Assembly: GCA_030428025.1 (NCBI GenBank)
Contig: JAUIBJ010000001.1
Span: 1 to 46,171 of the forward strand
Origin: Alphaproteobacteria bacterium
GTDB lineage: Bacteria > Pseudomonadota > Alphaproteobacteria > Rhodobacterales > Rhodobacteraceae
Direction: 5' to 3'
Length of the DNA: 46,171 bases
Below are positions 3,923-40,914 of this stretch, in pieces (within the stretch, counting starts at the first letter, position 1; each line of letters begins with the position of its first letter). A program made the position numbers and the translations under genes. Under the pieces are notes generated by a model that was given only the letters and a program-made list of their open reading frames with translations, did no database searches and was not told the DNA's origin.

Positions 3923-4058
3923 TTACGCAGTTTCTATATTTTTCAATCACTTATCAGATTTTATCTGACGTTTCCAAGCGTTTGACATCAATGGCTTACC
4001 CCGACCAGCCCGGCCCATGTGCCACGGCCAGGCCCAACCTGTCGACATGGAGAAAACG

Positions 4059-5159: not shown

Positions 5160-5160
5160 G

Positions 5161-6419: not shown

Positions 6420-8821
6420 GCGTTGTTCCCGTCGCCGTCGAAGATCCCGCTATAGCCGCCCCAGAAATTCAGGCCGCGATCGAAGTCGCGCTTGTAGATC
6501 ACTCCGAGCGGCCAGGCATGTTTGGTCAGCACCACCTCGGGATCGCCGTTGAAAAGCATGTCCCAAAGCTCGTAGCAGCCGACGCGATCGCCCGGCACCG
6601 CATAGTCGGGATGCAGCTCAGATGTGATCGGCGGCCGGATGTCCCAGAGATCGGTGTAGTTGGTGGGGATGTTCGTGAAGTCCGGCAGGAGAAGATTGTA
6701 GTTGGCGCCGTTGCCCCGGACGTTGCCGCCCAGCACGACGAGCTTGCCGCCGGTGCCGGGGTTGGTGTTGTAGCCGGCGAAGTGCGCGTTGCAGTAGTTG
6801 CCGACCGAGACAGCGATACCCGTGATCGCGGGGTATGCCTTCTTTGGCGGTGTGGCGTTCAGGTGCTGGACCAGCGTATTGAAATGCGCCTCGGAATTGC
6901 CGCCGGTAAAGCCGGTGATCGCCCGGTCGTGGCCATTCATGAACAGGCTCTGCTCGTGCCTGTGCGGGCCGATGCTGACCGTCCCGTTGGTGCCGCGCGA
7001 CCAGATCGCGCCCAAGCCACTTTCATCGGGGTTGATGTTGACAAAGCCGGTCCAGGCGCCGCGCATGACGACATCGTACCTGCTGACGAACCGCGTCGCC
7101 ATCGAGCCCTGGTTGAACTGAATAAAGTCGTTGTGATTACCCGGCGACATCGCCCGGTCGCGGGCCGGGAAGTTGCAGCCGAAATCGGGGTCAATCATGT
7201 TGCCGCCGTTGGCGATGGTGATGTCATCGCCGCCGACGTAGTTGCCCATCATGCGCTTGATGCGCGGGCGGTCGATCGTGCCGCCGAGCTTGCAAAGCCC
7301 ATCCTTCATGTAGAGGTGAACGTTGCCCTCGACGATCAGGCCCTGGGTGTTGTCGGCGGTGAAGAGATAGTTCGTGACGCCCGACGCGGTGGACCCGACC
7401 GCGACGTTGAACGGCCAGCCCCGGCCGACGCATTTGTAGAACCCGCTGTCGATGGAATTGTCGGCGGTCCAGAGGCCGCTGAAATAGTCCTGCATGTCGG
7501 GGGCGCGCAGATCCATGCGCCACAGGACGATGTTGCGGGAACCGTTGAGCGATCCGGTGCCGATATGTTTCACCGTGACTTCGGGATCGCCGCCGCCGGC
7601 CAGGAAGCCGCCGACCGGGCGGATATAGACGCGCTCGGGCAGGTCGATCCCGCTCAGGTTCATGTGGCCCGTCGTCGTCGTGTCGACCCCGATGCAGCGG
7701 ATCCCGCCCGGATGACTGGCCGCCCAGGCGACAAGCTGGTTGCGCACGTCGGCGGGTGAGGAGACCACGACATCGGGCGGCGGCGGCTGAAGCCCGGCAT
7801 TGGTGGGGTTGCTCGGCGTGGCCGGGACGGTGCGCCAGGACCATGTATCATCGGTCTGCGCCGCAACCGGGTTGCCGGCCTGGTCCTCGAAGGCACCGCC
7901 ATCCCAGCGGATCGAGAGGTTTTGCAGATCGCCCTGCGCCACGACAGGCGTGAGCGTGATCTGCGAGCCCGCGTAAACCGCGTTGACCGCGTCGATGATT
8001 TCGTGGGTGGTCAGCGTGTCCGTGTCGCGGAGATAGAAGTTGCCCGATCCGGCGACGACATTCTCATTCGCGTTGATCGTGATCGGCGCATCCTTGGGAA
8101 CGTCGATGCCGGTCGGGATGATGGAGGACACAACGGGCGGGGTGGTGTCGGCCGCCGGGGTCTTGCCGGTGACCTTCAGTTCGATCGGCAGACCGCCCGC
8201 CTTGGTGATCATCCTGGACACAATCGTGCCGGCCGGGTTGGAAACCCGGAAGCCCTTGATCACGAACGGCACCGTGGTCACGCCGTCAGCCGGCATCTGA
8301 GCACCGTCGCTGTCGTCATAGTTGTTCTCGACAAAGCCCCAGAAACCGATCGTCACCGTGTAGGGGCCGACGACAAGCTGCACGTTTTCCTCTGTGGCGC
8401 CGTCGAACGGGATCACCTCATCGGAGAAGGGACCACCATCGACGATCACGTCGTACATGCGGGGCGCCTTGGCAGTCCCGCCGGGCCAGGGATGCGGGAT
8501 CAGCCGGTTCTGGACGGCATCAATGGGACCATCAGCCATGAGGATGAACTCCAGATCAGTGGGGTCAAAGGCGAAGCGGTCGCCGCCCGTGGGCTCCTCG
8601 CCGGGCGGCTGCTCTTCTGGGGGATCGTCGGCCGGGGGATCTTCCTCGGCCGGGGGATCGCCAGCGGCGGTGTCGTCATAGACCTCGCGCAGCGTGTAGG
8701 TGATCTCGGTGTCGGTCGATGCCTTGAGCCCGGTGCGGACATAGGCTTTGCCGTCCTTGAAAAAGACACTGCGCTCGCCCTCGGCGATCGCCTGGTTGTT
8801 GTGCTTGTAGCGATAGGCCAT
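6416..8821 (-). CDS. Putative tailspike/depolymerase: Ig-like domain plus parallel beta-helix
   Basis: DTTPPVVSS...ITINANENV...FEDQAGN is a Big/SbsA-type Ig signature. The C-half is Asn/Gly-rich with GGDDI and NHNDFIQ, typical of pectin-lyase-like beta-helices. Located in the tail region. Confidence 0.65.
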   Translation of the reverse strand: MAYRYKHNNQAIAEGERSVFFKDGKAYVRTGLKASTDTEITYTLREVYDDTAAGDPPAEEDPPADDPPEEQPPGEEPTGGDRFAFDPTDLEFILMADGPIDAVQNRLIPHPWPGGTAKAPRMYDVIVDGGPFSDEVIPFDGATEENVQLVVGPYTVTIGFWGFVENNYDDSDGAQMPADGVTTVPFVIKGFRVSNPAGTIVSRMITKAGGLPIELKVTGKTPAADTTPPVVSSIIPTGIDVPKDAPITINANENVVAGSGNFYLRDTDTLTTHEIIDAVNAVYAGSQITLTPVVAQGDLQNLSIRWDGGAFEDQAGNPVAAQTDDTWSWRTVPATPSNPTNAGLQPPPPDVVVSSPADVRNQLVAWAASHPGGIRCIGVDTTTTGHMNLSGIDLPERVYIRPVGGFLAGGGDPEVTVKHIGTGSLNGSRNIVLWRMDLRAPDMQDYFSGLWTADNSIDSGFYKCVGRGWPFNVAVGSTASGVTNYLFTADNTQGLIVEGNVHLYMKDGLCKLGGTIDRPRIKRMMGNYVGGDDITIANGGNMIDPDFGCNFPARDRAMSPGNHNDFIQFNQGSMATRFVSRYDVVMRGAWTGFVNINPDESGLGAIWSRGTNGTVSIGPHRHEQSLFMNGHDRAITGFTGGNSEAHFNTLVQHLNATPPKKAYPAITGIAVSVGNYCNAHFAGYNTNPGTGGKLVVLGGNVRGNGANYNLLLPDFTNIPTNYTDLWDIRPPITSELHPDYAVPGDRVGCYELWDMLFNGDPEVVLTKHAWPLGVIYKRDFDRGLNFWGGYSGIFDGDGNNA

Positions 8822-8829
8822 GCGTCACC

Positions 8830-10485
8830 TCATGCGTTGGCGTAGTTGCCGTTCACGACGCTCATCGAGGCGGAGCCGAGGTTGAACCCGTCGTTCCAGC
8901 CCTCTGCCGTATCGCCAGCCCTTGCATCCGCAAGCATGCCGGAACCGAGAAGCAGGAACGGGGCGCCGAGACCGGAGATGTCCTTCGGCTTGCCGGATCC
9001 GTCGATGAACGAGGTGTGCGGGATGATCGCGCCCGCCTGGAAAAAGAGATCGGCGATCCGCCCATCCCATGTGTCCTGGGCGCCGACATCCTTCCAGGTC
9101 ACATCTGCCGCCTGCGACATGAGGATGGTGCCGGAACCCACGGTCGGGGAGGAAACATCATCGAAAGTCGGGGTGACCCCGTTGATGCGGAAATCGAAGA
9201 TGCCGGCACCGGAGAGGGAGACAGCCAGGTAGAGGTGATAGATGGAACCGGCGGCCATACCGCCCGTCAGAGCCATGTCGATCCATGCGGGTGTGCCGGC
9301 GCTGTCGTGAACGATCCAGCGCGGTTCGATCTGGCCGCCGTTGCTGAACGTCATCAACCGCACGCCTTGCCCGGATCCATTCATCAGGGAGATAATCGTG
9401 CCGGTGTTCGAAGTGTTGAAGGGGCGCACCCAGCAGGACAAAGTAAAGCTGGCCGCATTGCCCGGCGCCGCCGTGGTCGACAGACGGGCATTCCCGTTGG
9501 TATCGACGAAGTTCAGCCCGATCTCGGCAGAGGCGGCGGTGGCGGCCGAGGCATTGCCGGTGCCATTGGTGCCGGTGACGACACAGCGCAGGTATTTGGC
9601 GACATCGCCCGGGGCGACTGTGTAGTCGGCGGCGACGGCCCCGGAGACACTCGCCCAGCCGGTCGTGCCATCGTCGGACCGCTGCCACTGATAGGTGAAG
9701 GCAATCGTCGGGTCGCCGGTCCAGGTGCCGTCGGTGGTGGACAGAACGTCGCCGACCACGGCGCGGCCGGAGAGAACAGGGGCAACGGTATTCGACGGGG
9801 CGACGCCGCCACCGCCGCCGCCCGGCGGCACCTCCCATTCGAGATCGGTCGGCGTGATCGTGTAATCCGTGATCCCGGAGAGGCCCGAAAGGTACGTGAA
9901 ATCGTCGGCGCCCGTGGCCGAAAGCACGACCTCTGCCTGCCCGACGGCGTCGCCGGCCTGAAGCACATAGGTCGAAAGCACCGGGACGCCATCGACAAAA
10001 TACGTGATCGCCTCCGAGACCGGGTTGCCGTTGAAGTCGGGATAGGTGCCCGCGATCCATGCATCCCCGATGACGTCCCCGACCAGCATGAGCGCCGTGT
10101 CCAGCTCGCCGCCGGTGGTGATGACGATGCTCGCCGCATCGGTGATCTGGATCGTCCGCGTGAACGGCCAGGTGCCGTTGTCGTCGGTGTATTGCAGCGT
10201 GACCGTGGCGGTCGGGTTGGTCTCGTGATCGAGCGCGGCCGTGTTCGATCCGACTTCCAGCGTCACGCCGTCGACATTCATCTGGAAGAGGTTCGCGACC
10301 TGTTGCGCGGCGATGCTGACCGCGCCGGGGTTCGACGCATTCACCGGCGTCAGCGTGGCGATGTCGGTGCCCTGGGCGGAATTCTCCACGATGCTGGCGG
10401 CGGACATGGCAAGGCCGGGGCCCAAAGGCGACCCGCCGCCCAGAAGGCGGAAATGCGGTCCAAGCCCTCCGCCGATCAGCTTCAT
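8830..10485 (-). CDS. Putative tail/receptor-binding protein with cadherin-like, Ig-like and LamG/ConA-like domains
   Basis: SIVENSAQGTDIATL...LDHET (cadherin-like); APSNTVAPVLSG..VGDVLSTTDGTW..FTYQWQR (Ig-like); FTLSCWVRP..WDGRIADL (LamG-like). Start MKLIGG overlaps the upstream stop (ATGA). Confidence 0.65.
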   Translation of the reverse strand: MKLIGGGLGPHFRLLGGGSPLGPGLAMSAASIVENSAQGTDIATLTPVNASNPGAVSIAAQQVANLFQMNVDGVTLEVGSNTAALDHETNPTATVTLQYTDDNGTWPFTRTIQITDAASIVITTGGELDTALMLVGDVIGDAWIAGTYPDFNGNPVSEAITYFVDGVPVLSTYVLQAGDAVGQAEVVLSATGADDFTYLSGLSGITDYTITPTDLEWEVPPGGGGGGVAPSNTVAPVLSGRAVVGDVLSTTDGTWTGDPTIAFTYQWQRSDDGTTGWASVSGAVAADYTVAPGDVAKYLRCVVTGTNGTGNASAATAASAEIGLNFVDTNGNARLSTTAAPGNAASFTLSCWVRPFNTSNTGTIISLMNGSGQGVRLMTFSNGGQIEPRWIVHDSAGTPAWIDMALTGGMAAGSIYHLYLAVSLSGAGIFDFRINGVTPTFDDVSSPTVGSGTILMSQAADVTWKDVGAQDTWDGRIADLFFQAGAIIPHTSFIDGSGKPKDISGLGAPFLLLGSGMLADARAGDTAEGWNDGFNLGSASMSVVNGNYANA

Positions 10486-10718
10486 TCGGTTGCCTCCCGC
10501 GCGATCGAGGAGGCAGAGCCACCGGCCAGCCGGTATTTCACCGTGTTGCCACTGACGATCCTGAGCGCATCGCCGGCCATCAGCTCGATCCCCTCGTCGT
10601 CGTCGGGGGCCGCCTGCACGCTGATCGCGACCTTGCCCGTGCGGCATTGCCAGATCTCGGTCGCGGCCAGAAGCGTGCCCGCCGACCAGCTCGTCGTGAT
10701 ATTGGTGATGAGTGCCAT
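10482..10718 (-). CDS. Small hypothetical protein in the tail module
   Basis: AAGGAG SD, coupled to the downstream gene. Confidence 0.7.
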   Translation of the reverse strand: MALITNITTSWSAGTLLAATEIWQCRTGKVAISVQAAPDDDEGIELMAGDALRIVSGNTVKYRLAGGSASSIAREATE

Positions 10719-10754: not shown

Positions 10755-11933
10755 TCAGCGAAGTTCCCACCAGTCCTTGACGTTCAGATCATTGTTCACG
10801 CGATATTTCGCACCGGCCGGAATGACCGGGTTGATCGTCGTCGGCGGCCCCGACGCCTGGTTGCTGGTGGCGATGTCTTTCCAGGTCGCGCCGTTGTCGT
10901 GGGACACTTCGAAACGGCGATCATTGCTGGTCGAACTGCGCCACCTCAGCGAGATCTGGATCGGCCGCCCGGTGTCGTTCGTATAGGTCACGCCCTCGGT
11001 CCGGCTGCCGTTCACGTTCTGCCAGGTCTGGCCGACGCCCAGAGGCGGCGCGGCCCATTCCGGCAGGGCCCCGGCACCGTTCATCGCCAGCACCTGCCCC
11101 GCCGTACCCTTGGCGAGGCGGACCAGCGTATTCGCGCCGGTCGCATAGAGGAGATCGCCGGCGGCCAGGGCCACATTGCCGAGGCTGGTAAGGTTGGGCT
11201 TGATGGGCTGACCGCCGATCGTCGCCAGCGCGATCACGGGATCGTCCACGTCCGACAGGTTGTTTCCGCCCAGCATGTCGCCGGTGCCGGCGCCGGGCGC
11301 GCCCTGCGGAATGAACAGTTCCCAGCGGCCCGCGCCGAGATCCGTCGCGAAGACCCCCGATGTGTGGGGGATCAGACAGATGTAGCTGTTTCCGCTGTCC
11401 CGCACGACATCGGACGGGGCGTAGTCCGTCGCCGTCACCCACATGCCCTTCCATTCCAGAATGCTGTTTTCCGCGGCCTGAGCCGCCGATGCTGAAAGGG
11501 CCGCGGCAGCGGCAGCGGCAACGGCGGTGGCGGCAGACGGTTCCGCCTGGGAAAGAAGCGGCAACAACGCGCCAAGGTCGCGGCCCAGCTCCTGGATGCG
11601 CCGCGTCAACAGGTCGAGCTGCGCCTCGAGCCCCTTTTCCCGTGTCGTCTTTGCCGCGAAGCCCTGCTGCTCGACGGTCACGCGCCGGATGACCAGGTCA
11701 TAGGTGTCGTACATCGCCGCGATCGGCGCGCTCAGCGTCAGGTCGCCACCACCGGCCGTTGTCTCGGCCGGGTTCACGGTGAAGTCCGCCGCCGGATCGA
11801 GCGGGGTCTCATTGCCGTCAGGATCCACCACGGCCGCCGTGATCGACCCGGCGCCGTAGGCATTGGCAATCTGGTAGGGGCCGATGCCCTGAACGGTGTA
11901 ACCCGGCTGCTGCACATAGACTTCGGTGGTCAT
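10755..11933 (-). CDS. Tail fiber protein (T7 gp17-like N-terminal anchor)
   Basis: N-terminus ...LVIRRVT..QQ..LEAQLDLLTRRIQE resembles podovirus fiber adaptors. Also a WVTATDYAPSDVV sugar-binding-like motif and a C-terminal LGVGQTWQNV..R...VTYTNDTGRPI fiber tip. Confidence 0.8.
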   Translation of the reverse strand: MTTEVYVQQPGYTVQGIGPYQIANAYGAGSITAAVVDPDGNETPLDPAADFTVNPAETTAGGGDLTLSAPIAAMYDTYDLVIRRVTVEQQGFAAKTTREKGLEAQLDLLTRRIQELGRDLGALLPLLSQAEPSAATAVAAAAAAALSASAAQAAENSILEWKGMWVTATDYAPSDVVRDSGNSYICLIPHTSGVFATDLGAGRWELFIPQGAPGAGTGDMLGGNNLSDVDDPVIALATIGGQPIKPNLTSLGNVALAAGDLLYATGANTLVRLAKGTAGQVLAMNGAGALPEWAAPPLGVGQTWQNVNGSRTEGVTYTNDTGRPIQISLRWRSSTSNDRRFEVSHDNGATWKDIATSNQASGPPTTINPVIPAGAKYRVNNDLNVKDWWELR

Positions 11934-14428
11934 CGGGTCAGATCTCCGGCTGCGTTGGAAAGGTCGGGGGCACGGGACGGGGCGATCGCGCCGCGATCCC
12001 ACCATGTACGTGTGCCGAAATCGCGCTCACGGCGCTTTTGCTGGCGGCGCCAGGTGGCCTCGGCTTCGGGATCGAGGAAGGCTTGCAGCTGGTCGGCGAC
12101 CATCCGGTCAAAGGCAAGACGCCCCCAGACCATCGACGAAGCGACGGGCGTGTTGTAGCGCAGGAAGTTCGCCGCATCGCGGCCGAGAAGCGTATCCTTG
12201 CCCTCGATGATCCGCTGGGTGTTCGACGCGATCGGGCCGAGGATGTCCGATCCGAGACCGACGACTGGGCCCGCCAGCGTCTCGGCGATGCCACCACCCG
12301 CCCGGCTCTGCTCGGCCGCGAAGAAATCACCGAAGATGCCAAGCCCGCCGCCCTGGAAGAGCGATGCCATCCAGAACTTGCCCTCGTCCATGGGTCGGGG
12401 ATCGTTGCCCTTGGCCAGTTCCTTCAGCTGGATCGCCAGGGCCCCGGTCAGAAGGAGAAGGCCCGACATCGAGGCGGCGTATTGCGCCTTGGCCATCGGT
12501 GTCGGCTGCGCCTGAAAACGCCGGTACTGGCCCAGCATCAGCGACATCGCGAAGCTCTTGTAGCTCGTCGAGCTGCGCAGAAGCTCGCCCGCGAAAGTGC
12601 CCGGGGCGGCGCTGCCCTGCAGGCGGGCACGACCCTCGAGGCTGGCCGAGGGGATCGCCAGTTCCAGTTGCTCGCGCACCGCCATCTGCAGGCGCATTGC
12701 CAAGCCCTCGGCCTCGGCGCGCGGCATCCGGGTCTGGGTTTCCAGCCAGTACATGGGGGCGATGAAATCGGCGCCGTTGCCGGCGACAAAGCGGGTGGCA
12801 GGATCACGCAACGCATCCCAGTCGGCCGCCGAGATCCCGCGCTCCTCGAAGAGCCGGCGCGTCGGCGGATCGAGATCGGCAAACGCGCGATCGGCCTGGT
12901 CGGCCAGGTGCCCGGCGAATTCCATCTGGAACGAGATCCGCCGCATGTCCGTGATGAAGCTCAGACCAGAAGCGCGCAGCGTGAAACCGGAAAGCCGCTG
13001 AGTGATGCCCGTTCCGATCAGCTGGCCGAAATAGCGCGAGGCGCCGCCACCTGCGTCGGCCAAGGTCGAGGCAACGTAGCCCATGCGCGCGGCGGTCTGA
13101 CGTGTCGCCTGGCTGGAAATCAGTTTCATCGTCGTCGCCATGACATTCTGCGGGCGCAGACCCATGATCCGGGCCGCGACGCCGATCGTCGCCATGTCGG
13201 AGACCGAGGAGAGGACCGCCGAGCCCAGCTGGGTTGCGGTCAGGTAGCCGCGCACGCCGGAAAAGAACCGCGCCCAGGCGATGTTCTCCGGCACGTTGGC
13301 GGCACCCGATTGGTGGGCGAACATGGTGCGCGCCAGGGCCGCCTGCTTCGTCACCTGCTCCTCGAGCTTCGCGCTCTTCAGCTCGGCCGCGCGCTTCTGC
13401 GCGGTCTGCACCGCGAATTCCAGCCCGCCCTTCGGGTTCGGCCCCAGAACGCGCATCATCGCGACATCATGGGCAAGGCCATGCAGCCCGTTCATCATCG
13501 CGGTGAAGGGGTCGCTGGCCCCGAATTTCTGGTTGTAGGCGCGCCAGGCCTTGCCCGACTTGAAATGCAGCACCCGATGATCGGCCCGCTGGTTGTAGAG
13601 CGCCTTGCCGCCCGGCGTCATCGCAGGCTTGCGGTCATCCCAGCCGCGTGTCGTGATGCCGTCATAGACGTCCTTCAGGAAACGGTCGGTCGCGGTCCTG
13701 GGCGGAATGACGTCGGGGGCATTGGCAAAGGGCTTGCCTGTGGTGACGTCGTCGATCCGGTCCCAGGCAAGGTGCTGCTCGATCTCCTCGGCCCAGGCGT
13801 CATACCCTTTGGCACGCAGCTCCTCGATCGAGTGGCTGTGGGCGATGCCGTAATCCTTCAGCTCGCCGATATCGCCGCCATGGGCGTTGAACATCTGCCG
13901 CATGCGGCGCTGCTGATACCGCACCGTATCGGCCAGCCGCTTGGCACTGGCGTTGCCGGTGTCGTCGCCGTGCAGCTCGTCGATCAGGTCGAAGAGAAGC
14001 GCACGATCGCGGCTGTTGCCGACGACGTTCAGGCCGGTGCGTTCCAGCACTTCGGCAAGACCCGCGTTGATGCTGTCGGTCAGGGCCTCGGTCAGCGAAC
14101 GGATGCTTTCGCCTGTGAAGCCCGACCCTTCGGAGAATTCCAGAAGGTTGCGCAACGCCAGCGCCGGATCCGGCGCGGTCAGGATCTGGGCCTTCAGCCG
14201 GCGCATCGCCTGCAGCTGGTTGACGACGGCGTGAAAACGCGAGCGGGCGGCCTTCCGCGTTGCCTCTTTCAGGTCGGCCGCCGCGCTCGCTTCAGCTGCA
14301 GGGCGCGGCATGATCTGCTCATACCGCGTGACCAGCTGATCATAGAGGCCCTGGGCAGCTTGCGCCCGGACCGGGTTCAGTTCCTTAGCGTCTACCGCGC
14401 GCTGGATGCAATCGGCGATCGAGGTCAT
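11930..14428 (-). CDS. Internal virion (ejection) protein, T7 gp16-like position
   Basis: 832 aa, helical, GGGLGIFGDF motif. Lies directly upstream of the tail fiber with ATGA overlaps on both sides. Confidence 0.7.
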   Translation of the reverse strand: MTSIADCIQRAVDAKELNPVRAQAAQGLYDQLVTRYEQIMPRPAAEASAAADLKEATRKAARSRFHAVVNQLQAMRRLKAQILTAPDPALALRNLLEFSEGSGFTGESIRSLTEALTDSINAGLAEVLERTGLNVVGNSRDRALLFDLIDELHGDDTGNASAKRLADTVRYQQRRMRQMFNAHGGDIGELKDYGIAHSHSIEELRAKGYDAWAEEIEQHLAWDRIDDVTTGKPFANAPDVIPPRTATDRFLKDVYDGITTRGWDDRKPAMTPGGKALYNQRADHRVLHFKSGKAWRAYNQKFGASDPFTAMMNGLHGLAHDVAMMRVLGPNPKGGLEFAVQTAQKRAAELKSAKLEEQVTKQAALARTMFAHQSGAANVPENIAWARFFSGVRGYLTATQLGSAVLSSVSDMATIGVAARIMGLRPQNVMATTMKLISSQATRQTAARMGYVASTLADAGGGASRYFGQLIGTGITQRLSGFTLRASGLSFITDMRRISFQMEFAGHLADQADRAFADLDPPTRRLFEERGISAADWDALRDPATRFVAGNGADFIAPMYWLETQTRMPRAEAEGLAMRLQMAVREQLELAIPSASLEGRARLQGSAAPGTFAGELLRSSTSYKSFAMSLMLGQYRRFQAQPTPMAKAQYAASMSGLLLLTGALAIQLKELAKGNDPRPMDEGKFWMASLFQGGGLGIFGDFFAAEQSRAGGGIAETLAGPVVGLGSDILGPIASNTQRIIEGKDTLLGRDAANFLRYNTPVASSMVWGRLAFDRMVADQLQAFLDPEAEATWRRQQKRRERDFGTRTWWDRGAIAPSRAPDLSNAAGDLTR

Positions 14429-17400
14429 GCTGCGGCCCTCCCGGCGGTGCAAAGGTTCAGGACTTCGGCCAGTTCCTCGTCGGCCTCGATGTCGTCCAGG
14501 AGCTCGGCCGCCGTGTATTCGGGGCCGTTTTCATCGAGGCGGAACGTCAGATCGCCGAGATCCGCGCGTATGGCGTTGACTTCGTCAGAAATGGCCCCCA
14601 TGTTAGGGGTGTCCTGAAGAGGATTTTTCCCCATGAAACTCGAAACGTTCTGCAGCTGGGATGGTCGGCCCGCGGTGCTGTTCCGCGAAGAGGGCGAGTT
14701 GTTTGCCCTGGCCAAGCTCGAACCGGGGGCGCCCTGGTCTGAAGTGGACGCTGGCGATGTCTGGTTCACGTCTCGCGCCGTCTCGACGCGCGAGGCTTTC
14801 GAAGCCGAATTCGAGCGGAACTTCGGATCGCTCGACGTGCCATCTGCCCTGAGCTTGGCAGCATCGAAGTCGGTTCCGGCCGCCGCCGAGTAAAGCCGTT
14901 CCTGGTCACGCAGCAAGTTCGCCTTGCGCGGATCGCCGCCAGGCAGCTTGCGCCACTCTTCATAAAGCGCGGTACCGGGCTGTTTCGCGCGATACATCGC
15001 ATCCGTCCAGATCTGCACTTCGCTCAGCATGCCGTCGTCATGCCGCACGATGATCTTGCGATCGGCATAGCCGGTCGGCTGGCGTACCCATCCCTCATCG
15101 ACAATGTCAAAACGTGCGGCCAGCGCGTCAGCTACCGCCTCTGCCTGGTCGATCGAGATGATGACAAAGCCCCCGCGTGAGACGTCGGTCAACCGGCGCG
15201 GCGCGTCATATTGCTTGCGCGCCAGTTTCCTTTCCGTGGTCGCGCGATCCTTCAGGCCGGGATCCTTGAACTCGACGCCCAGCCCGGCCGCGATCTCGTC
15301 GCCGGCGCGGGTAAGCCGTTCCTGCGCTGGCGCGGCAAGGCGGTAAAGCGTGTCGATATCATCGAAGGGCTGCGCCTCTGCCAGGGTGCGGACATAGTCA
15401 CCTGGCGCCACGTTGCTGAGATCCGGCGCGGTTTGGCCGGCCCCGCGCAGATCCTCGATCGCGGCCTGGTCGGCCTCAATCGCTTCCGGGCTGTCGGCCC
15501 CCCTGGCAAAAGCGTCCTCGGCCAAGTTGCCAGGATCAGCGATCGGCGTCGGCGCGGCCGTCGGCCGGCCCAGCTCGTCGGGCAGATCCGCAAAGGCCTC
15601 GCCGTCGAGGGCGCGCAGCACTTCCGCCGGGCCAGGGGCTTCGCCGAACAGTCCGGCTTCTGTCGTGCCCACCTTGCGCGCCTCATCCGCGTAGCGGGTC
15701 AGGAAGGCCGCGATCTCGTCCTTGGGTGCCGCCCGGCTGCCCCGCCAGAACTTGCGGACCAGCGCCGCCGTCAGGGGGCTGATCGCGCCGTCCAGAAGGT
15801 CGACATCGGCGATCAGCTCCTCGAGCATGCCGGCAACGCTCTTGCCCTCGGCCTGGGCCGCTTCGCGCGCGGCCGCGATCAGCCGCATGGCATCGAGGAC
15901 GAAGGGGGAAATATCCATGTCGGCGCGCACAGTGCCGGCGGCGATGTCCGCCTTCAGGCCCGCCCAGGCGGGCGCGGCATCGGCCAGCGCGTCCATCAGC
16001 CCGCGCAGCTCACCGGCATCGGCCTCGGCGAAACGGGCGACGATGTCGGGCGCGTCCCAGGCGCGGGCGAAGAGTGCCGCCTGCAGGCGACGGATCCCCT
16101 CGGCGTTCAGGGCGCCCGTGGCGTCCACCATGGCGGCCCTCTCTGCCTGTGGCAGGCCACCGAGTGCCGCCTGGGCGAAGGCGCGGTTCTCGGGGCCGCC
16201 CAGCCGCGCCCCTGGCGTATAAAGGCCGAGGGTCGCCTCGCTCATTGCGGCACCATCGGCGGCGGCCCGTTCGGTGGGTGACATGCGGGCAACGGTCGCG
16301 TTGTTCGCCTCTCGCACGAAACGCTGGCGCCCCGCCTGGTCCAGCTCGGACGTGCGGCGCGCGACCAGGACCGGCTCTTTCACGCCCTCGGGGATCTCGT
16401 AGCCGGCCGCCTCGATCTCGGCGCGGTAGGCTTCCGCGCGATCGGGATGGCGTTCGAAGGCGCGCTGGATCGCCATCACGCGGCCGTTGCCGCTTTCGAT
16501 GACGTTGTCGGGCCCCACGACGGGCGCGCCGCGATCGGCCTCGGGCGCTGGCATCAGCCGGGCAGGATCGAGCTTCGCGGCGATCTCGGCGATCTGCTCG
16601 TCGGACGCGGCGCGCGATCGGTCGCGCGGCTGCAGCTCACCCGTTGCGCGCTTCAGAAGCGAAGCGTCCACAACCTCATAGGTGACGTCGATGCGGGTGT
16701 CCCCTGCGGTGACTTGCCCGGACCGGGTATAGCCGCGTGAGGTGGAAAAGCGCGGCGCATCGGCCGAGGGTGGCGGGGTCTTGCCGGTCCATCGCGGGAT
16801 CCGGCCGCCCTGGTACTGCGCCATGACGTCCTTCGCATGGCCGACGCGGCGCCCCAGGTGCGGGATCCCGGGGCGTTCGAAATGCTGGCTGATCAGCGCG
16901 GCCGCCTCTTCAGCGGTGCGGGCTGTCCGGATCTTCGCCCAGGCGCCGGCCTCGCTGGTCCGCAACTCGTGAAGCAGGAACGCGATCTGGGTGTCGAGAT
17001 CCGTAGCGGGCTTGCCGCGCTTGGCCGCAAAGTCCTGAAGGGCGCGCCGGCGCGGGCCGTTCCACTGCCAGACGCCAAGCGCATTACCACCATCGCCGAC
17101 GGCCCCGGGCAACAGACCGGGGCCGCTTTCGACCATGCCGTTCCCGACGAAAGCGGCGGCAATATGCGGCTCGATCTCGGCCTCGAGGAGCCGGCCGAAG
17201 ATATAGCCGACCCGGTTCGTTTGTGGGCTGGCATTGCCGGTCAGGCCGAAGTTGAAGTCGGCCAGGCGCGGCAGAGTGCCAGGCGCGGCGACGGGCTGGT
17301 CGGACGCATCGGGGGGCAGGTTCTCTTCCAGGCGGCGCCGGGTTTCCTCGACCGCCGCTTCCTGTCGCATGGGTGACACGCCGTCGGGGGTCGCCTCGGC

Positions 17401-18150
17401 AGCCGCGCGACCGCGCGCGGTGCGGTATTCGCGGAACCGCGTGATCCCGATCGCACCCCCCTTGATCAGGCCTGCGAATGCGCCCGATAGGGCGGTGGCT
17501 GTCAGGACATCGGCGATCGGGTTCGGTTCTGCCACGTTCAGCTCGCCGGCGACTTGCCGGCGCTGGTCGATCATGGTGATTTCGGTGGCGCCGCCGAGCG
17601 CGCCTTCGATCGCTACCGTTCCCAGAAGCCCGGCGCGGGCCGGCGCGCCCAGAAGAAGCGAGGCGAGTGATTTTTCCTCGGTCAGACTGGCCCAGCTGCG
17701 GCCAAGGAATTCCGCGCCCCAACTGCCCTCCGGGGCAGCGGACAGGATCGCGACCTGCTCATCGTACTCTGCCTGTCGCCGGGCATTTACGATCGCGTCG
17801 AATTCCTCCGGGGTGGTCGGAAAGGCGAATTCGCCGTCGCCCTCTGGGGCCTTCGTGATCTCCGGGTTGCGCGCCTTGGCCTGCTGCAGAACCGTGAAGA
17901 GCTCGCTGCGGCGGTGCGACGGCATTTCGTAGGCATCATAGGGCCGCATCATGCGGTCCTTCAGGTCCGGCGGCAGGACGCCGATCAGTTGATCGGCCAG
18001 CTCATCTTCGAAGTTCTTCTTCCGGTTCCAGCTGTCGTCCTCGATCCGCTGCATGACGCTGGCAGCGCCGAACCGCTCCCCGAAGCTCGGCGCGGGTGGC
18101 GCCTCGGTGGCGATATCCTCGCGGGTGTTCTCGGCCAGGAAAAAGGTCAT
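14425..18150 (-). CDS. Polyvalent internal virion protein: phage tail lysozyme, ddrB-like ParB and RelA/SpoT-like synthetase domains
   Basis: Lysozyme about 16820-17220 (VGNGMVESG..LGVWQW..FERPG). ddrB-ParB about 16250-16700 (LQPRDRSR..GAPVV..IESGNGR). Synthetase about 14890-15370 (LKDRATTERK, LTDVSRG, GYADRK, EVQIWT). Confidence 0.8.
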   Translation of the reverse strand: MTFFLAENTREDIATEAPPAPSFGERFGAASVMQRIEDDSWNRKKNFEDELADQLIGVLPPDLKDRMMRPYDAYEMPSHRRSELFTVLQQAKARNPEITKAPEGDGEFAFPTTPEEFDAIVNARRQAEYDEQVAILSAAPEGSWGAEFLGRSWASLTEEKSLASLLLGAPARAGLLGTVAIEGALGGATEITMIDQRRQVAGELNVAEPNPIADVLTATALSGAFAGLIKGGAIGITRFREYRTARGRAAAEATPDGVSPMRQEAAVEETRRRLEENLPPDASDQPVAAPGTLPRLADFNFGLTGNASPQTNRVGYIFGRLLEAEIEPHIAAAFVGNGMVESGPGLLPGAVGDGGNALGVWQWNGPRRRALQDFAAKRGKPATDLDTQIAFLLHELRTSEAGAWAKIRTARTAEEAAALISQHFERPGIPHLGRRVGHAKDVMAQYQGGRIPRWTGKTPPPSADAPRFSTSRGYTRSGQVTAGDTRIDVTYEVVDASLLKRATGELQPRDRSRAASDEQIAEIAAKLDPARLMPAPEADRGAPVVGPDNVIESGNGRVMAIQRAFERHPDRAEAYRAEIEAAGYEIPEGVKEPVLVARRTSELDQAGRQRFVREANNATVARMSPTERAAADGAAMSEATLGLYTPGARLGGPENRAFAQAALGGLPQAERAAMVDATGALNAEGIRRLQAALFARAWDAPDIVARFAEADAGELRGLMDALADAAPAWAGLKADIAAGTVRADMDISPFVLDAMRLIAAAREAAQAEGKSVAGMLEELIADVDLLDGAISPLTAALVRKFWRGSRAAPKDEIAAFLTRYADEARKVGTTEAGLFGEAPGPAEVLRALDGEAFADLPDELGRPTAAPTPIADPGNLAEDAFARGADSPEAIEADQAAIEDLRGAGQTAPDLSNVAPGDYVRTLAEAQPFDDIDTLYRLAAPAQERLTRAGDEIAAGLGVEFKDPGLKDRATTERKLARKQYDAPRRLTDVSRGGFVIISIDQAEAVADALAARFDIVDEGWVRQPTGYADRKIIVRHDDGMLSEVQIWTDAMYRAKQPGTALYEEWRKLPGGDPRKANLLRDQERLYSAAAGTDFDAAKLRADGTSSDPKFRSNSASKASRVETARDVNQTSPASTSDQGAPGSSLARANNSPSSRNSTAGRPSQLQNVSSFMGKNPLQDTPNMGAISDEVNAIRADLGDLTFRLDENGPEYTAAELLDDIEADEELAEVLNLCTAGRAAA
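14576..14623 (+). promoter_or_regulatory. Sigma70-like promoter and Shine-Dalgarno for the nested antisense ORF
   Basis: TTGACT (14576-14581), 17-bp spacer, CATGTT (14599-14604). GAGGA at 14619-14623 lies 9 nt before ATG 14633. Confidence 0.55.
14633..14893 (+). CDS. Nested antisense 86-aa protein, candidate antitoxin/immunity protein
   Basis: Own promoter-like and SD signals. Acidic, aromatic, globular-looking sequence, while the host frame over the same bases is a Ser-rich linker. Confidence 0.7.
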   Translation: MKLETFCSWDGRPAVLFREEGELFALAKLEPGAPWSEVDAGDVWFTSRAVSTREAFEAEFERNFGSLDVPSALSLAASKSVPAAAE

Positions 18151-20285
18151 GGCGCGAACTCCGACGGATTGACGATCGGGGCGCCCAAAACCTTGCGCGA
18201 CCGTTCGGCCGCATCGGTCAGGCGGGTCAGAGACAGGCGGAACTCGTCGCCGGTAACGGCATCGAGGGCGCGCACAAGCGTGTTGCCCTCCCGGCGGGCC
18301 AGCACATAGCTGTCATCGCCCACGGCGATGAATTGCAGATCCTGAAGATCCTCGGCCGTCAGATACTGACCGTTGATCACGGGCAGGTTGCCGCTCTCGG
18401 ACGCGGCCGCGATGGCGCCCGTGGCAGCGGTGTATCGCGGCTTTTCCTTGCCCCCCAGGACCGGCACGTCGCCGAGGGCATCGCCGAGGCTGTCCAGCGC
18501 GCGCTCGACGCGGGACTGCGACAGGCCCATCGGCATGAAGGTGGTATGGCCGTTGATGTCCTGGATCCCGCCGGTGGCATCCGACGATCCGAACGATCCG
18601 GTGCCGCCCATGGCCTCATGCGTTGCCTGGGCGTAGGCCTCGGCGTCGATCTCGCCGTCAGGGTCGAGCCCGTTGCGCGCGGCATAGAGCGCGTCGGCGG
18701 TCGCGAATAGCGTTTCCTTCGCCCGCACGCCAGTCTTGGGCAATTCGTCGAAGAGCCCGCCCACCGTCGAAAAGAACGGGGCCGCCCGGTCGCTCAGCGG
18801 CGGCATTACCACTGTCTTGCGGGCGATCTCCTCCTGGCCGCGCAGGATCTCGGTTGCGAGCGCGTCGTTGCCGCCGGCGCCGAGGAACCCCGCGACATGA
18901 ACAAAAGGCAGATCGGGCGCGAGGCCGGCCACCGCACCCGGCCCAAGCGTCGTGGCGAGGACGCGCGCGATGCGGGCCCGGTCGGCCGGGGCCGTGTTGC
19001 CCTTCGGGTCGATCATCGCCTTCAGGGCCGCCTGTTCGTCCAGCGACAGGTAGACCGGCCGCTCGGTATAGCCGCGCTTCGTAAGCCAGTTGCCGAACAC
19101 GGCGCGGGCGCCCAGACCCTCGACCATCGCGTCTGGTGACGACAGGTCCAGCGGGGGCACGGGCAGCTCAACCTTTGCCGAATAGGCGATCGGATCGCGG
19201 GCCAGTTCCGTCTTGGCCTCGGCCAGGCGGGCATCGACGGTGTCCTTGGCCTCGGTCTGCCATTTGCGCATGACCGTCTCGCCCGCCATCCGGTCGCTCA
19301 GCGCCTCGAGCTCGTCGGGCGTCATCTGGTCGATGAAAATCTTCTCATCGCGAAGCGCCACGGCGCCGCGCAGCTCGGCGACCAGCTCGGGATGTTCTTC
19401 CTGGGCGACGGGATCATCGACCAGGGCTTCGAGTGGCGAGACACGCCCTTTCCCGACGATGGCGATCGCCTCGTTCAGATTGCCCTTGATCTGCGCACTA
19501 ACCTGTCCCGCCTCGGCCTCGGCGGCCTTCTGCGCCTTTTCCTCGCGCGCGGCGATGGCGGTCTCGGCCTTTGCCGTCCAGCTCGCCACCTGTTGCGCAT
19601 CGAGGCCCGACCAGACCCCGGCCTCGAGCCCGTCGAGAACCGCATCGGGGTCCTCGGCGATCAGGTAAGTCAGGTTCGCGGTCTCGGATGCGGCGCGGAA
19701 GTCGCGCTTTTTCGCAGCACCCACCTCGGGGCTGAACACACCGCGATTGACCATGTCGTCAACCTGCGCGTCGTAATCGAGGTAAAGCTCGTCGCGCGTG
19801 TTCGGATCGGTCAGCGCGGCCTGCTGGCCGGCAACCTGCTCGTAATCGAGGAACGTGCCGACACGCTGGCTCTGCCGCAAGGCAAGCGCGGTCTGGCCGA
19901 TCGCGAAACCGTGCCGGTTCGCCAGGTCATCGAAACCGAGCCCCCAGGCTTCGGCGTTCTTCGGATCGACGATCGCGCGGCCGTTCTCGCGCTTGCCGGT
20001 CAGATAGCGGTCCTTCAGGCCGGCCACGCCCTGATCCCAGAACTGGCCCAGCTCGTCGGGGTCGCCGATCTCCTCGGCCTGCAGGCGCAGGTCGTTCAGA
20101 TCCTTCGTCATGTCGACCTGCAGCCGGCGCATTTCCCGATCGAGCCGGTCGGTTTCCAGACGGTCGCCGATCTGCGCCACCTGGTCCCCGAAGGCCTGGA
20201 TCACATTGCCGGTCTGCGGCTCCTCGAAAACCGGCCGCGCGGCGCGGCCCGCATCGGTTCCAGCCCTGGGGACGGTCAGCGTCAT
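18147..20285 (-). CDS. Internal virion (ejection) protein
   Basis: 712 aa, helical, between the small internal protein and the polyvalent protein; ATGA coupling. Confidence 0.65.
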   Translation of the reverse strand: MTLTVPRAGTDAGRAARPVFEEPQTGNVIQAFGDQVAQIGDRLETDRLDREMRRLQVDMTKDLNDLRLQAEEIGDPDELGQFWDQGVAGLKDRYLTGKRENGRAIVDPKNAEAWGLGFDDLANRHGFAIGQTALALRQSQRVGTFLDYEQVAGQQAALTDPNTRDELYLDYDAQVDDMVNRGVFSPEVGAAKKRDFRAASETANLTYLIAEDPDAVLDGLEAGVWSGLDAQQVASWTAKAETAIAAREEKAQKAAEAEAGQVSAQIKGNLNEAIAIVGKGRVSPLEALVDDPVAQEEHPELVAELRGAVALRDEKIFIDQMTPDELEALSDRMAGETVMRKWQTEAKDTVDARLAEAKTELARDPIAYSAKVELPVPPLDLSSPDAMVEGLGARAVFGNWLTKRGYTERPVYLSLDEQAALKAMIDPKGNTAPADRARIARVLATTLGPGAVAGLAPDLPFVHVAGFLGAGGNDALATEILRGQEEIARKTVVMPPLSDRAAPFFSTVGGLFDELPKTGVRAKETLFATADALYAARNGLDPDGEIDAEAYAQATHEAMGGTGSFGSSDATGGIQDINGHTTFMPMGLSQSRVERALDSLGDALGDVPVLGGKEKPRYTAATGAIAAASESGNLPVINGQYLTAEDLQDLQFIAVGDDSYVLARREGNTLVRALDAVTGDEFRLSLTRLTDAAERSRKVLGAPIVNPSEFAP

Positions 20286-20833
20286 GCGGCCAGCTCCGGC
20301 CAGAGATCCGGGGCCTCGTTCAGAAGCGTCGACGCGGCCGAGAAGGTGCCCTTCAGAAGCGACGTTCTGGCGCGCGTCAGCGCGATCTTCTGGGTGCCAC
20401 TCAGCTCGCGCTGGGTCGCGTCACCCTTGGAGCGGACCGACTGGCTGGCAAAGCTCAGCTCCTGCGCGGCCGACTGGCCGAGCGCGATCACCGTCGGGCT
20501 GTCGAGGCTGACGCCGCGCTTGGCCAGCTCGGCGAATTGCCGCCGCATGGCCGTGCGGAACTGTGCCCTGGTGCGCGCATCCTCGGTCGCGGTCAGGCGG
20601 GCTTCCGTCGCCTTCTGCTCCTCGATCTGGCGGGCATATTCCCGGTTCGCCTTCGCGCTGGCGTTCGCCTGGTAGAGGGCACCGCCGACGGAGACCAGCG
20701 TGCCGAGGGTCGAAAGCGTGCTGCCGATCGTCGCGGCCCCGGCCGTCGCCCCGGCGGCGGTCGCCCCGGCGGCGGCCGTGCCGCCGATGCCAAGGGCCGA
20801 TCCGATCGCTGCACCAATGCCAAAATCGCACAT
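20282..20833 (-). CDS. Small internal virion protein (T7 gp14-like)
   Basis: MCD start, Gly/Ala-rich hydrophobic N-terminus followed by a coiled-coil, GVSLDS motif. Follows tail tubular B. Confidence 0.7.
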   Translation of the reverse strand: MCDFGIGAAIGSALGIGGTAAAGATAAGATAGAATIGSTLSTLGTLVSVGGALYQANASAKANREYARQIEEQKATEARLTATEDARTRAQFRTAMRRQFAELAKRGVSLDSPTVIALGQSAAQELSFASQSVRSKGDATQRELSGTQKIALTRARTSLLKGTFSAASTLLNEAPDLWPELAA

Positions 20834-23064
20834 TAGAGGCCGGCCTCCGTGATTGCGGGCACAAGGCCGGTGATGGTCATGGGCGCGCCGGAAACCGGCG
20901 TGAATTCCAGCGCCACCTCGTCGGCATGGCCGGATCCGAACTGCGGCTTTGCAATCCCGGAATAGGCCACGGTCAGATCCTCGGCGACGGCGCGCGGGAT
21001 CAGGTCATAGGGGCGGCCGACGCTTTCGCGTGCCGGGAAATCCTTCTCGACCACGGCGACCTTGCCCGCTGCGGTACGATGCACGCCGATGCCGGTCGGC
21101 ATGCTCAGCCGCTTCACCCGGCCCATCGGATTGCCGTCGGGCGCGGCGGCCTGGACATCCAGCGTGCGGGCCCGGTGGGTGGCGTCGAAAAGCCCGATCA
21201 CGGCATGACCTACATCGTTCGGCAGGACCACGTCGCCATTGCCCGCAACGACCAGCCCGTCGAAGTCGCCCGTATCGGTCCAGGCTTCGACAGTTTCGCC
21301 CGCCAGGTGCGGCACGCTGAACGTGTCGGTCGGGGTTGCGGGCGCGAAGACCGACGACGCGAAGAAGTGAACGGCGGTGGAAATCGGCTCATTGCCGGTC
21401 AGCAGGCCATAGGTCACGGCCTGCTCTTCCACCATGCGGACGGTCTGCCCGCCGATCGTGCGGGCCACGACCATGGTCAGCACGTCGTAACTGCCCGCCG
21501 CATCGGCCGTGACGGCGGTCGTTTCGACGAAACCGCCAGCCAGCGAATACGGCGCCCAGCCCAGGACCTCTTCGCTCGGGTCATGGATCATTGCCGCCAG
21601 CTCGCCATTGCCGCACCGCGCCCAGGCGATCCGCTGGGGCGCGGCCGCCCAGGCCAGCTCCTCAAACCCATCCGCGCCCAGGTGGTCGGATGGCAGGGAC
21701 AACTCGCGCGGGCGGTTGGCGTCGAGCTCGAAATTGTACTTGATCTCGATCACGCGGCGGCCGTCGCGGCTGACGAAGATCGGCCAGCCGTCGGGCGCGA
21801 TGGGCCGCACGTCGGCCCGCGACCCGATTGCACTGTCGAACTGGAACACCGTCGTGGTCGGGCCGATCGCGGCATTGCCGTCGGCGGATTTCGTCGAATA
21901 CTCTTCGCCGAGCGCACCGATATGCAGGCCGGACCGGCCGCGCAGAAGCCAGATGATCCGGTTGACGCTGGACCCGCCGTCGATGGCATAGGCAAAGGCG
22001 CTGTCGGCCTCGAGGCCCGGCTCGAAGTTTTCAAACGCGCCGATGGTCGAAAACCAGACGGTGCGGGGATCTGCGGGCGAGGCCGCCGCGACCAGGCGCT
22101 GATCGTAGATCTCGATCGCGCTCGGATAGCCATGCACGTCGGACCAGGCCCCCTCTTCGAAGCGATAGGTCGGATCATCGACGACGCCTTGCGGCAGCCG
22201 CTTGATCACGGTCGCGGTCGCCGTGGTCGCGTTCGTGACGGCCGTGATCTTCAGGATGCCGGTGCCATCATCACGGTAGCGCCACTTGATGTTCGGCGTT
22301 TTCTGCACCCGCTCGACGCCACGGTCGTGGGTCGGCGGGTTGACGCCGGTATCGCTGCCCTGTGTCAGCTCGTAGGTCTTGCCGTCATAGCGCATCTTGT
22401 CGCCGACAGAGACGGCGGTGTTCCCGGTCCAGAGCGGCACGTCGGAATTGTCCTCGGGGCTCAACCGCATCAGGCTGCCGACATGGGACGCGGTGAAGAA
22501 CGCCGAGCTCGCGGTCAGCGTGATCGTGCCGGTCGGGCTGCTGGCCTGCATGGTCAGGGCGGTATCGAGGTTCTGCACCCGGAACGGGCCCCGGTCGAAA
22601 CTCGCATCAGCGATGGTCCAGTTGTCGAGCGCGAAGCGGCTCAGCTTCTGAACCGGCTGCAGCCCGTCGGCAAAGTAGATCACGTCGGCCGACTGGACCC
22701 AGTGCAGCTTCGCGATCGAGGCATCGTCATAGGGCGTGTCGAGCTCGTATGGCGTGCCCGGGCTGCCGCTGTCCTCGACCAGCGCACCATAGCGCCAGAC
22801 GCGCATCTTGCCGTCGGTGAATTCCAGCACGACGCTGTCATTGGCCGCGAACTGGAAGTCAATCAGGCGCGCCGGCAGGTTGTTCCGGGTGGTGCCGCGA
22901 TAGATGGTCCCGGGCGCCCGGGTGAAGCCGCCCTGGCGCAGGGGCAGGAAGCCACGGCAGGCGGCAAGGCCGGTCTGGAACCGCTGGTAATCCGGCCGGC
23001 GCCAGAGAAGGGGCGAGATCTCGCCCGAAGAGAATGCGAACTGGGCCGGGCTCGTGCGCGTCAC
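20833..23064 (-). CDS. Tail tubular protein B / nozzle (T7 gp12-like)
   Basis: FSSGEISP..R N-terminus, GGFTRAPG, GYPSAIEIYDQRL; size and position fit. Confidence 0.85.
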   Translation of the reverse strand: MTRTSPAQFAFSSGEISPLLWRRPDYQRFQTGLAACRGFLPLRQGGFTRAPGTIYRGTTRNNLPARLIDFQFAANDSVVLEFTDGKMRVWRYGALVEDSGSPGTPYELDTPYDDASIAKLHWVQSADVIYFADGLQPVQKLSRFALDNWTIADASFDRGPFRVQNLDTALTMQASSPTGTITLTASSAFFTASHVGSLMRLSPEDNSDVPLWTGNTAVSVGDKMRYDGKTYELTQGSDTGVNPPTHDRGVERVQKTPNIKWRYRDDGTGILKITAVTNATTATATVIKRLPQGVVDDPTYRFEEGAWSDVHGYPSAIEIYDQRLVAAASPADPRTVWFSTIGAFENFEPGLEADSAFAYAIDGGSSVNRIIWLLRGRSGLHIGALGEEYSTKSADGNAAIGPTTTVFQFDSAIGSRADVRPIAPDGWPIFVSRDGRRVIEIKYNFELDANRPRELSLPSDHLGADGFEELAWAAAPQRIAWARCGNGELAAMIHDPSEEVLGWAPYSLAGGFVETTAVTADAAGSYDVLTMVVARTIGGQTVRMVEEQAVTYGLLTGNEPISTAVHFFASSVFAPATPTDTFSVPHLAGETVEAWTDTGDFDGLVVAGNGDVVLPNDVGHAVIGLFDATHRARTLDVQAAAPDGNPMGRVKRLSMPTGIGVHRTAAGKVAVVEKDFPARESVGRPYDLIPRAVAEDLTVAYSGIAKPQFGSGHADEVALEFTPVSGAPMTITGLVPAITEAGL

Positions 23065-23660
23065 CGGATCACCTCCGTCGCCCAGTCGCCCTCGTCCGGC
23101 AGCCCGTCATAGCGTGCAGGGCTCGCCTGGTTGCGGTCCCGCGCCATGGCCTGTTTCAGGTACTGGCTGGCATTGGCCTGCAGGTCGGCAATCTTGGTCC
23201 GGGTCGATATCCAGCGCGGCGCGAGAAGCGCGGCCAGCTGATAGGCAACGGCCGTCTTGAAGGTCGCGGGCAACTGGCTTTCGTCGGTGATCTGGCCGGT
23301 GTAGCGGATCCGCAAGGGACCGGCCGAGGCCGCGCGCAACAGATCGCGATCACGGCGCCAGGACTTGCCGGGCCGATCGACCTCCTGCACGGTGACGCAT
23401 TCCGCCGGCAGGCGGTAGCTGTAGGGCATGTCCGCATCGGCCGCGATCGTGTCGGGCAGGCTGGTCGCCTCTGGCAGCGATGCCAGGACCGAGGCAAAGG
23501 ACCAGTCGCAGGCCTCGAGGCAGATCGCCATCGCCTCGGGATATTGCGCGGCGGCGGCCTCGGCCTCTTCGCTGTCGTCAGCGAAAGAACTGATCGGGGA
23601 TTTCTCCATCAGCCGGAAGGCCTGGGCGACGATGGTCGATGTGGCGATCGGGTCGGGCAT
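23061..23660 (-). CDS. Tail tubular protein A / adaptor (T7 gp11-like)
   Basis: WSFA, YSYRLPAEC and F..AVAYQLA motifs; 199 aa; lies upstream of the nozzle gene. Confidence 0.8.
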   Translation of the reverse strand: MPDPIATSTIVAQAFRLMEKSPISSFADDSEEAEAAAAQYPEAMAICLEACDWSFASVLASLPEATSLPDTIAADADMPYSYRLPAECVTVQEVDRPGKSWRRDRDLLRAASAGPLRIRYTGQITDESQLPATFKTAVAYQLAALLAPRWISTRTKIADLQANASQYLKQAMARDRNQASPARYDGLPDEGDWATEVIR

Positions 23661-40912: not shown

Positions 40913-40914
40913 GG

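Follow-up and report, generated by a model that had tools for sequence, protein, structure and literature searches.

An antisense gene nested in a polyvalent, probably ejected prophage protein as the predicted immunity partner of its small alarmone synthetase domain

RelA/SpoT domains were predicted in phage polyvalent proteins in 2017, together with DdrB-ParB and lysozyme domains and in a late-gene context, and it was proposed that such proteins deliver an alarmone synthetase into the host (Iyer et al., 2017; PMC5512222). The RelA/SpoT acquisitions described there concern prophages of Spirochaetes and epsilon-proteobacteria, no cognate immunity is mentioned for these domains in the text available to us, and the word 'antisense' does not appear in the main text. 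MuF-Apk2 toxins of temperate phages, which are (p)ppApp synthetases with downstream immunity of the IapK/Tis1-like and Aph1 types, have since been characterised (PMC10083569; PMC12226406). IapK/Tis1 proteins are reported to occlude the acceptor site of the synthetase, and occluding immunity proteins adjoin both phage and T6SS (p)ppApp synthetases (PMC12226406; PMC10083569). What temperate phages gain from packing toxins that make alarmones into their virions has been put as an open question (PMC10083569). A further group, the exported alarmone synthetases SaEAS, VpEAS and AaEAS, belongs to the same Apk1-like superclade. For export, its members are listed with Sec, WXG/LXG, XopAD, MuF, DUF4157 and Rhs/PAAR domains, a list that does not name podovirus ejection proteins (PMC12691689).

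We analyzed a stretch of 46,171 nucleotides from an alphaproteobacterium (hereafter the window), which is a whole contig and holds a complete prophage of ~41.7 kb. Its ends are marked by two copies of a 52-nt repeat (3871-3922 and 45583-45634), the right one lying in a tRNA-Thr gene. The late genes follow the order terminase, portal, capsid, tube A, tube B, small internal virion protein, a 712-aa gene, a 1241-aa protein that we call the carrier, and an 840-aa virion protein. The main features are the following:

3871-3922, no strand assigned: left 52-nt attachment repeat, a copy of the 3' part of tRNA-Thr
11930-14428, minus strand: gene next to the carrier, virion structural protein (phrog_684) of 840 aa, homologous to phiV10 p20
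14425-18150, minus strand: carrier, 1241 aa, polyvalent and likely ejection protein, in the epsilon15-gp16 gene slot
18147-23660, minus strand: tail tube A, tube B, small internal virion protein (phrog_418) and unassigned 712-aa gene, upstream of the carrier
40894-41526, plus strand: CI-like repressor (HTH + S24)
43278-44447, plus strand: integrase (phrog_1, E 8e-25)
45583-45664, minus strand: right attachment repeat within tRNA-Thr(TGT)

An earlier note on this DNA, made from the letters alone, had placed the gene among podovirus internal (ejection) proteins, and the neighbourhood bears this out: tube A and B, an internal virion protein and a virion structural protein surround the carrier in the gene order of phiV10/epsilon15. 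Since the 840-aa gene is homologous to phiV10 p20, the carrier occupies the slot of phiV10 p19, which is annotated as similar to epsilon15 gp16. Epsilon15 is named among the phages that eject internal proteins (PMC8954989). From this synteny and from its lysozyme domain, the carrier is probably ejected from the virion. It fits the description of a phage polyvalent protein, with lysozyme, DdrB-ParB and RelA/SpoT domains in one chain encoded among late virion genes, and its close named homologues come from Paracoccaceae, Roseobacter and Salipiger, which makes a Rhodobacterales host likely. Among the contigs of 4 runs, one of 19 kb contains the stretch at issue here in full and differs from it by 3 substitutions, with no indel. 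No isolated phage with the synthetase domain was found among 50,697 GenBank phage records. Within the carrier we could distinguish:

16816-17208, minus strand: Phage tail lysozyme domain (Phage_lysozyme2), residues 315-445 (Pfam PF18013, E 3e-26)
16354-16701, minus strand: DdrB-like ParB domain (ddrB-ParB), residues 484-599 (Pfam PF18763, E 9e-37)
14872-15372, minus strand: small alarmone synthetase domain, Tas1/Apk-like, residues ~927-1093
14428-14568, minus strand: conserved C-terminal tail with an acidic helix and a near-terminal Cys, present in orthologues whether or not they have the synthetase

Concerning the synthetase, four ordered motifs had been proposed to mark a RelA/SpoT-like small alarmone synthetase, and all four lie in one minus-strand frame of 14425-18150: LKDRATTERK (residues 966-975, nt 15255-15226), LTDVSRG (987-993), GYADRK (1027-1032) and EVQIWTDAM (1044-1052), with the catalytic K/K, D..R, GY and ExQ intact. 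The Pfam RelA_SpoT model alone matches weakly (E 0.04), and PHROGs and NCBIfam give no match for the domain. However, a 39-row profile searched against the PDB retrieves Tas1 (6ox6_A, E 2.4e-16) and SaEAS (8vx3, E 1.2e-7) and no other RSH protein at E<=1, RelP and RelQ included, while a single-sequence search gives SaEAS at E 2.6e-4 and Tas1 at E 0.015. The AlphaFold2 model of the domain (pLDDT 94.8) matches RSH synthetase domains in Foldseek, where the nucleotidyltransferase fold that the earlier note asked to be checked is found with 6ox6_A in first place (E 4.1e-9). VIA also recovers 6ox6_A (Z 16.2, rmsd 3.0, 162 aligned), tied with RelP (Z 15.6) and B. subtilis SAS2 (Z 15.3), and scores CapRel lower (Z 12.3, rmsd 2.8, 161 aligned). 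By predicted fold and by residues, ~927-1093 is confirmed as a small alarmone synthetase domain, on which profile, model, Foldseek and VIA agree. It was also correctly described as lacking hydrolase and regulatory domains: on the full protein, Pfam reports Phage_lysozyme2 and ddrB-ParB only, and no HD hydrolase, TGS, ACT or regulatory domain at E<=0.01.

The family is large: a search of 1.84 billion representatives gives 436 clusters at E<=1e-10. It is matched in five of 401 genomes of the class, that of the window included. Across it, K967 is kept in 87 of 88 members and K975, D989, R992, E1044 and Q1046 in all 88; these six catalytic positions lie outside the search pattern, whereas the invariance of DEGW and GYxDRK is by construction.

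The caution that the product cannot be assigned from sequence was well placed. The syn3 position of the carrier reads D-x-K and syn4 reads IW (W at this position in 70/88), and these match neither the Apk2 signatures (GxN, YH) nor those of RSH proteins (SxH, IR) as given in PMC12226406. As, in addition, motif swaps failed to switch specificity (PMC12226406) and enzymes that make ppApp, ppGpp or a mixture all occur in the Apk1-like clade, SaEAS itself making both alarmones (PMC12691689), the product is not readable from these motifs. We would give (p)ppApp an even chance, regard (p)ppGpp, or both, as clearly less probable, and consider a tRNA or other acceptor the least likely outcome.

The closest system by sequence profile and by Foldseek is the Apk1/Tas1-Tis1 pair of the Pseudomonas aeruginosa T6SS (PDB 6OX6). 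The carrier shares with Tas1 an R three residues after the catalytic D and a G-H/T-x-(L/Y)-Y-E-(E/D)-W-R helix, but identity is ~20%, there is no PAAR domain, and the context is that of a phage instead of T6SS delivery. SaEAS comes second among the structural matches. With Apk2 it has in common a Tas1-like synthetase fused to a virion protein of a temperate phage, and a small adjacent protein proposed to occlude the acceptor site (PMC10083569; PMC12226406). The differences from Apk2 as published are several. The carrier is a polyvalent protein in a podovirus ejection slot and not a MuF protein, and neither the N-terminal MuF of Apk2 nor the PAAR of Apk1 is among its Pfam domains. Its synthetase is internal and not C-terminal. 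Finally, no Aph1 adjoins it, and its partner gene, unlike the immunity genes of Apk2, is nested on the opposite strand with a promoter-like element of its own.

This partner gene, at the end of the interval 14890-15370 that the earlier note had examined and missed by it, comprises:

14576-14604, plus strand: sigma70-like promoter, TTGACT (14576-14581), 17 nt, CATGTT (14599-14604)
14619-14623, plus strand: Shine-Dalgarno GAGGA of the nested gene
14633-14893, plus strand: nested antisense gene, 86 aa, predicted immunity protein with a folded core at ~1-70

It overlaps carrier residues 1086-1173, directly after the synthetase, with the third codon positions of the two frames aligned. The promoter-like element corresponds to a conserved NMG...EVN motif in the carrier frame, although a strict consensus promoter scan did not call it, and the stop codon of the nested gene comes from the conserved L-Y of the last synthetase helix. 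Over the overlap, the antisense frame has a protein-like composition (33% hydrophobic, 10% aromatic), as opposed to 17% hydrophobic, 1.4% aromatic and 28% Ser+Thr in the carrier frame. This Ser/Thr-rich carrier segment nonetheless keeps odd motifs such as TAGRPSQ, which is the reverse reading of W-D-G-R-P-A-V in the partner.

The antisense ORF is present, with its start at the same place and fully nested, in the window and in 79 of 80 viral loci chosen by whole-protein similarity, L057 being the one without. Its signals are strongly enriched over matched control windows: a Shine-Dalgarno of at least five letters occurs in 30 of 44 representatives against 19 of 2133 controls, TTGAY at 30-70 nt upstream in 30/44 against 74/2133, and a -35/-10 pair in 24/44 against 52/2133, bearing in mind that the promoter patterns were set post hoc and that the 44 representatives are related sequences. 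In L049, L055, L058 and L074 a -10 box lies ~7 nt before the partner ATG and there is no Shine-Dalgarno, which suggests a leaderless mRNA.

The polarity of dN/dS flips in all four divergence bins, the sense frame being the more constrained over the synthetase (for example 0.21 sense against 0.30 antisense) and the antisense frame over the overlap (0.12 antisense against 0.16 sense). On 25 disjoint pairs, the antisense frame is the more conserved over the overlap in 11, the sense frame in 5, with 9 ties (162 against 193 changes of 1514), while the synthetase control gives 21 against 2. The frame-specific signal over the overlap is thus modest, and aligning this region on the antisense protein biases it towards that frame.

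These figures invite the objection that the antisense ORF is no gene but a shadow frame opposite a conserved linker, the synthetase being a passenger or inactive. Openness by itself is weak evidence, as elsewhere the same relative frame is free of stops in 27% of windows of 62 codons, and dN/dS is low in both frames because third positions coincide. Moreover, ddrB of phage P1 contains an annotated opposite-strand ORF, iddB, in the same relative frame (NC_005856; L099:4459-4857), likewise inside a DdrB-ParB virion gene; its product is Ser/Ala-rich and unrelated to the partner family (E 0.068 against the family HMM), and no synthetase adjoins it. Against a shadow frame stand the conserved start, Shine-Dalgarno and promoter, the homologues that lie free of any sense-frame overlap or on the sense strand, the confident predicted fold and complex of the partner (both below) and the invariant catalytic residues of the synthetase, and we consider it highly improbable.

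We then asked how far the partner is linked to the synthetase in loci collected by scans for the synthetase motifs only, a sample that overlaps the 80-locus viral set. These scans gave 187 loci, 180 of them confirmed, from which 98 representatives below 90% identity were retained; 9 were too short, leaving 89 scorable. An iterated HMM found the partner in 74 of the 89, with 0 hits on reversed decoys, and 5 more have a Shine-Dalgarno-led antisense ORF in the same frame and place that is likely the partner. In 57 of the 74 the partner is a nested antisense gene, and in 12 it is antisense with a partial overlap; 2 are convergent and free of overlap, 2 follow in tandem with both genes on one strand, and 1 is an in-frame fusion. 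Consistently, among 176 synthetase proteins 38 end right after the domain and, of the 138 that read on, 120 carry the footprint of the partner and 18 do not, one of the latter (P0115) having the partner in frame. Searching from the partner side, synthetases adjoin all 6 true members among 120 motif matches. A partner match occurs in 2 of 401 genomes of the phylum, one being that of the window and the other lying at a contig end. By these sequence comparisons the antisense gene is real and co-inherited with the synthetase.

The linkage is not absolute. The partner is absent from 10 of the 89, an eight-member clade plus L256 and L272, in which the catalytic residues are intact, and this, together with L057, indicates that it is not obligatory. 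Intact catalytic residues with no visible partner were noted in L229, L268, L270, L281, L318, L336, L350, L372, L256, L272 and L057.

The partner protein itself has no Pfam, NCBIfam or PHROG family. Its predicted model (pLDDT ~88 over residues 1-70) shows a four-stranded beta region and helices, and the best score in the ESM Atlas is 0.76, a lead only. We considered a Tis1-like protein; Tis1 is not among the matches listed by sequence profile, Foldseek or VIA (best Z 4.5), and a likeness beyond these listings may exist. These blanks in family and structure searches need not indicate a new fold.

ESMFold2 predicts a complex between synthetase and partner with an ipSAE of 0.83, against 0.00 for the best of 3 controls; of 157 solved complexes 116 attain the mark used, as do 2 of 215 mismatched pairs, a calibration that applies only roughly with the alignments used here. 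The runs share at least 98% of contacts, with a partner pLDDT of at least 88. In the model, partner residues 38-49 and the beta hairpin meet carrier residues 978-982, 986, 1022-1027, Y1063, W1066, R1067 and 1071-1080, so that the partner is predicted to cover Y1063/R1067 and the loop that precedes the conserved GY motif. This region we take to be the acceptor side of SAS structures, and the bound site is probably the acceptor pocket that IapK/Tis1 proteins are reported to occlude. As the Tas1-Tis1 complex is solved, the predicted docking could partly reproduce that known structure.

These data suggest that a toxin-immunity pair is more likely here than a free-running enzyme of host reprogramming. 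The latter is the line taken by the earlier note; extended to the present data, it would have a mild, non-lethal (p)ppGpp-type enzyme injected, the antisense protein being a dispensable tuner or having another target. Such host reprogramming by alarmone-like products was indeed proposed for these domains by Iyer et al. (PMC5512222), and it would accommodate both the catalytically intact relatives without partner and the VIA tie of Tas1 with the housekeeping RelP and SAS2. It accords less well with the tight linkage in 74-79 of 89 relatives and the joint loss of both genes in five orthologues, with a predicted binding over invariant residues, and with a profile that at E<=1 matches only Tas1 and SaEAS and not RelP/RelQ. 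We regard it as unlikely.

The reading that we favour, and regard as probable, is that the virion injects a toxic synthetase whose antidote is encoded in the phage genome, by a nested gene under separate promoter control. Lysogens and lytically infected cells alike would express the partner from a host-type promoter of its own; it would silence the synthetase before packaging, and would shield lysogens against related virions. Upon ejection, the carrier would enter a naive cell without antidote, consume ATP and make alarmone, and the poisoning would end once the entering genome makes the antidote. An antidote on the opposite strand, combined with an open sense frame, would allow the cassette to fit in the middle of a protein and leave the late operon unbroken. 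What counts against injection is that the two enzymes must work in different compartments, the periplasm for the lysozyme and the cytoplasm for the synthetase, with only a weak hydrophobic stretch (780-798, present in 2 of 7 proteins checked) between them.

The slot of the synthetase in related carriers is variable. Five orthologues (L091, L092, L097, L098 and P0041) lack synthetase and partner jointly; P0042 has a PBECR1 nuclease in the slot; P0040 has another domain and no synthetase but keeps the antisense footprint (residues 1102-1141), possibly an orphan immunity gene, as read from the protein, a search for its DNA having found none; and a same-genus prophage in G024 has an unrelated short insert. 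The synthetase is also found mid-chain in LPD38 and ART-PolyVal giant polyvalent proteins. A slot that may hold nothing, PBECR1 or another domain is as expected of swappable virion cargo.

This bears on another explanation, according to which the pair acts in the producing cell as a lysogen-level defence or stabilising module, through abortive infection, or by setting lytic timing once the late operon is switched on or something displaces the partner, injection being irrelevant. Many toxSAS modules are prophage defences (CapRel, PhRel; PMC12691689), and some layouts recall them: in L241 and P0115 the partner is fused in frame after the synthetase in a CapRel-like single chain, and L236 and L253 have tandem, operon-like pairs. 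The cytoplasmic delivery of the synthetase that injection calls for is, besides, a presumption. However, the synthetase is part of the reading frame of a late virion gene, which lysogens should not express, and the exchangeable slot and the polyvalent nature of the other carriers also argue for virion cargo, so that we consider a defence module improbable.

Outside any overlap, the partner domain is found in convergent, tandem and in-frame fused form; in addition, a separate protein encoded by a convergent gene (L043:7923-10100, L044:7820-9418, L045 and L047:7945-8586, minus strand) carries it in 2-4 tandem copies. In L043 and L044, the two complete cases inspected, this separate protein has a hydrophobic N-terminus, and it could possibly be a membrane-anchored trap for incoming synthetases (superinfection exclusion). 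A FastTree tree of 92 domains, without the truncated domains of L228 and L252, mixes the layouts with weak deep support, and we claim no order between them.

A synthetase in a phage virion protein would, taken alone, add one more member to a group already described. Targeted literature searches, which covered few subscription papers, returned no account of a nested antisense immunity candidate of this sort, of a promoter overprinted on the codons of the carrier, or of such a variety of layouts, and the Apk1 homologue lists of PMC12691689 and the datasets of Iyer et al. may include family members; these elements are what appears to be new. As a natural antisense overlapping gene, the nested gene has unusually good support and a function that can be tested, and its tandem, convergent, partly overlapping, fully nested and fused relatives bear on the origin of overlapping genes. 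The carrier family, whose natural variants have, lack or swap the cargo, provides a compact test case. The locus also suggests that immunity genes of other virion-borne enzymes may hide on the opposite strand, leaving a Ser/Thr-rich 'linker' in the annotated protein.

A broader proposal, which we hold to be doubtful, is that of a widespread cassette insertable in frame, with the poison in the virion and the antidote in the genome. Only cells that let the phage genome survive and be transcribed, or that carry the prophage, would make the antidote; hosts that destroy the DNA would arrest or die, and lysogens would be armed against non-lysogens. Antidote and promoter would be overprinted in an essential structural gene and thereby missed by annotation.

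Some further observations concern relatives and the rest of the prophage. In L085, L086 and L088 a cellular Tas1-like synthetase, which in one case has an HD domain, precedes a small gene in the same direction that matches no known family; homology of the partner to these small genes looked plausible by eye but is not significant, as hhalign gives probabilities of 0.4% and 1.2% and there is no HMM match. A DHH/DHHA1 phosphoesterase (phrog_4771) is encoded in the replication region (36068-37000, minus strand), any link to alarmone turnover being conjectural. Just inside the left attachment site lie an unassigned 257-aa gene (4017-4790, plus strand) and a lipoprotein-like ORF (4851-5186, minus strand), possibly lysogenic cargo. 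Two large tail-region proteins (6416-8821 and 8830-10647, minus strand) have Ig-like and laminin-G/lectin domains and are probably receptor-binding or depolymerase proteins. Finally, a Cys near the carrier C-terminus (window 14428-14460) is present in 40 of 43 representatives, and one near the N-terminus of the next virion protein in 35 of 43, the next gene not being found in 7; the two may form a disulfide or metal link between two ejection proteins.
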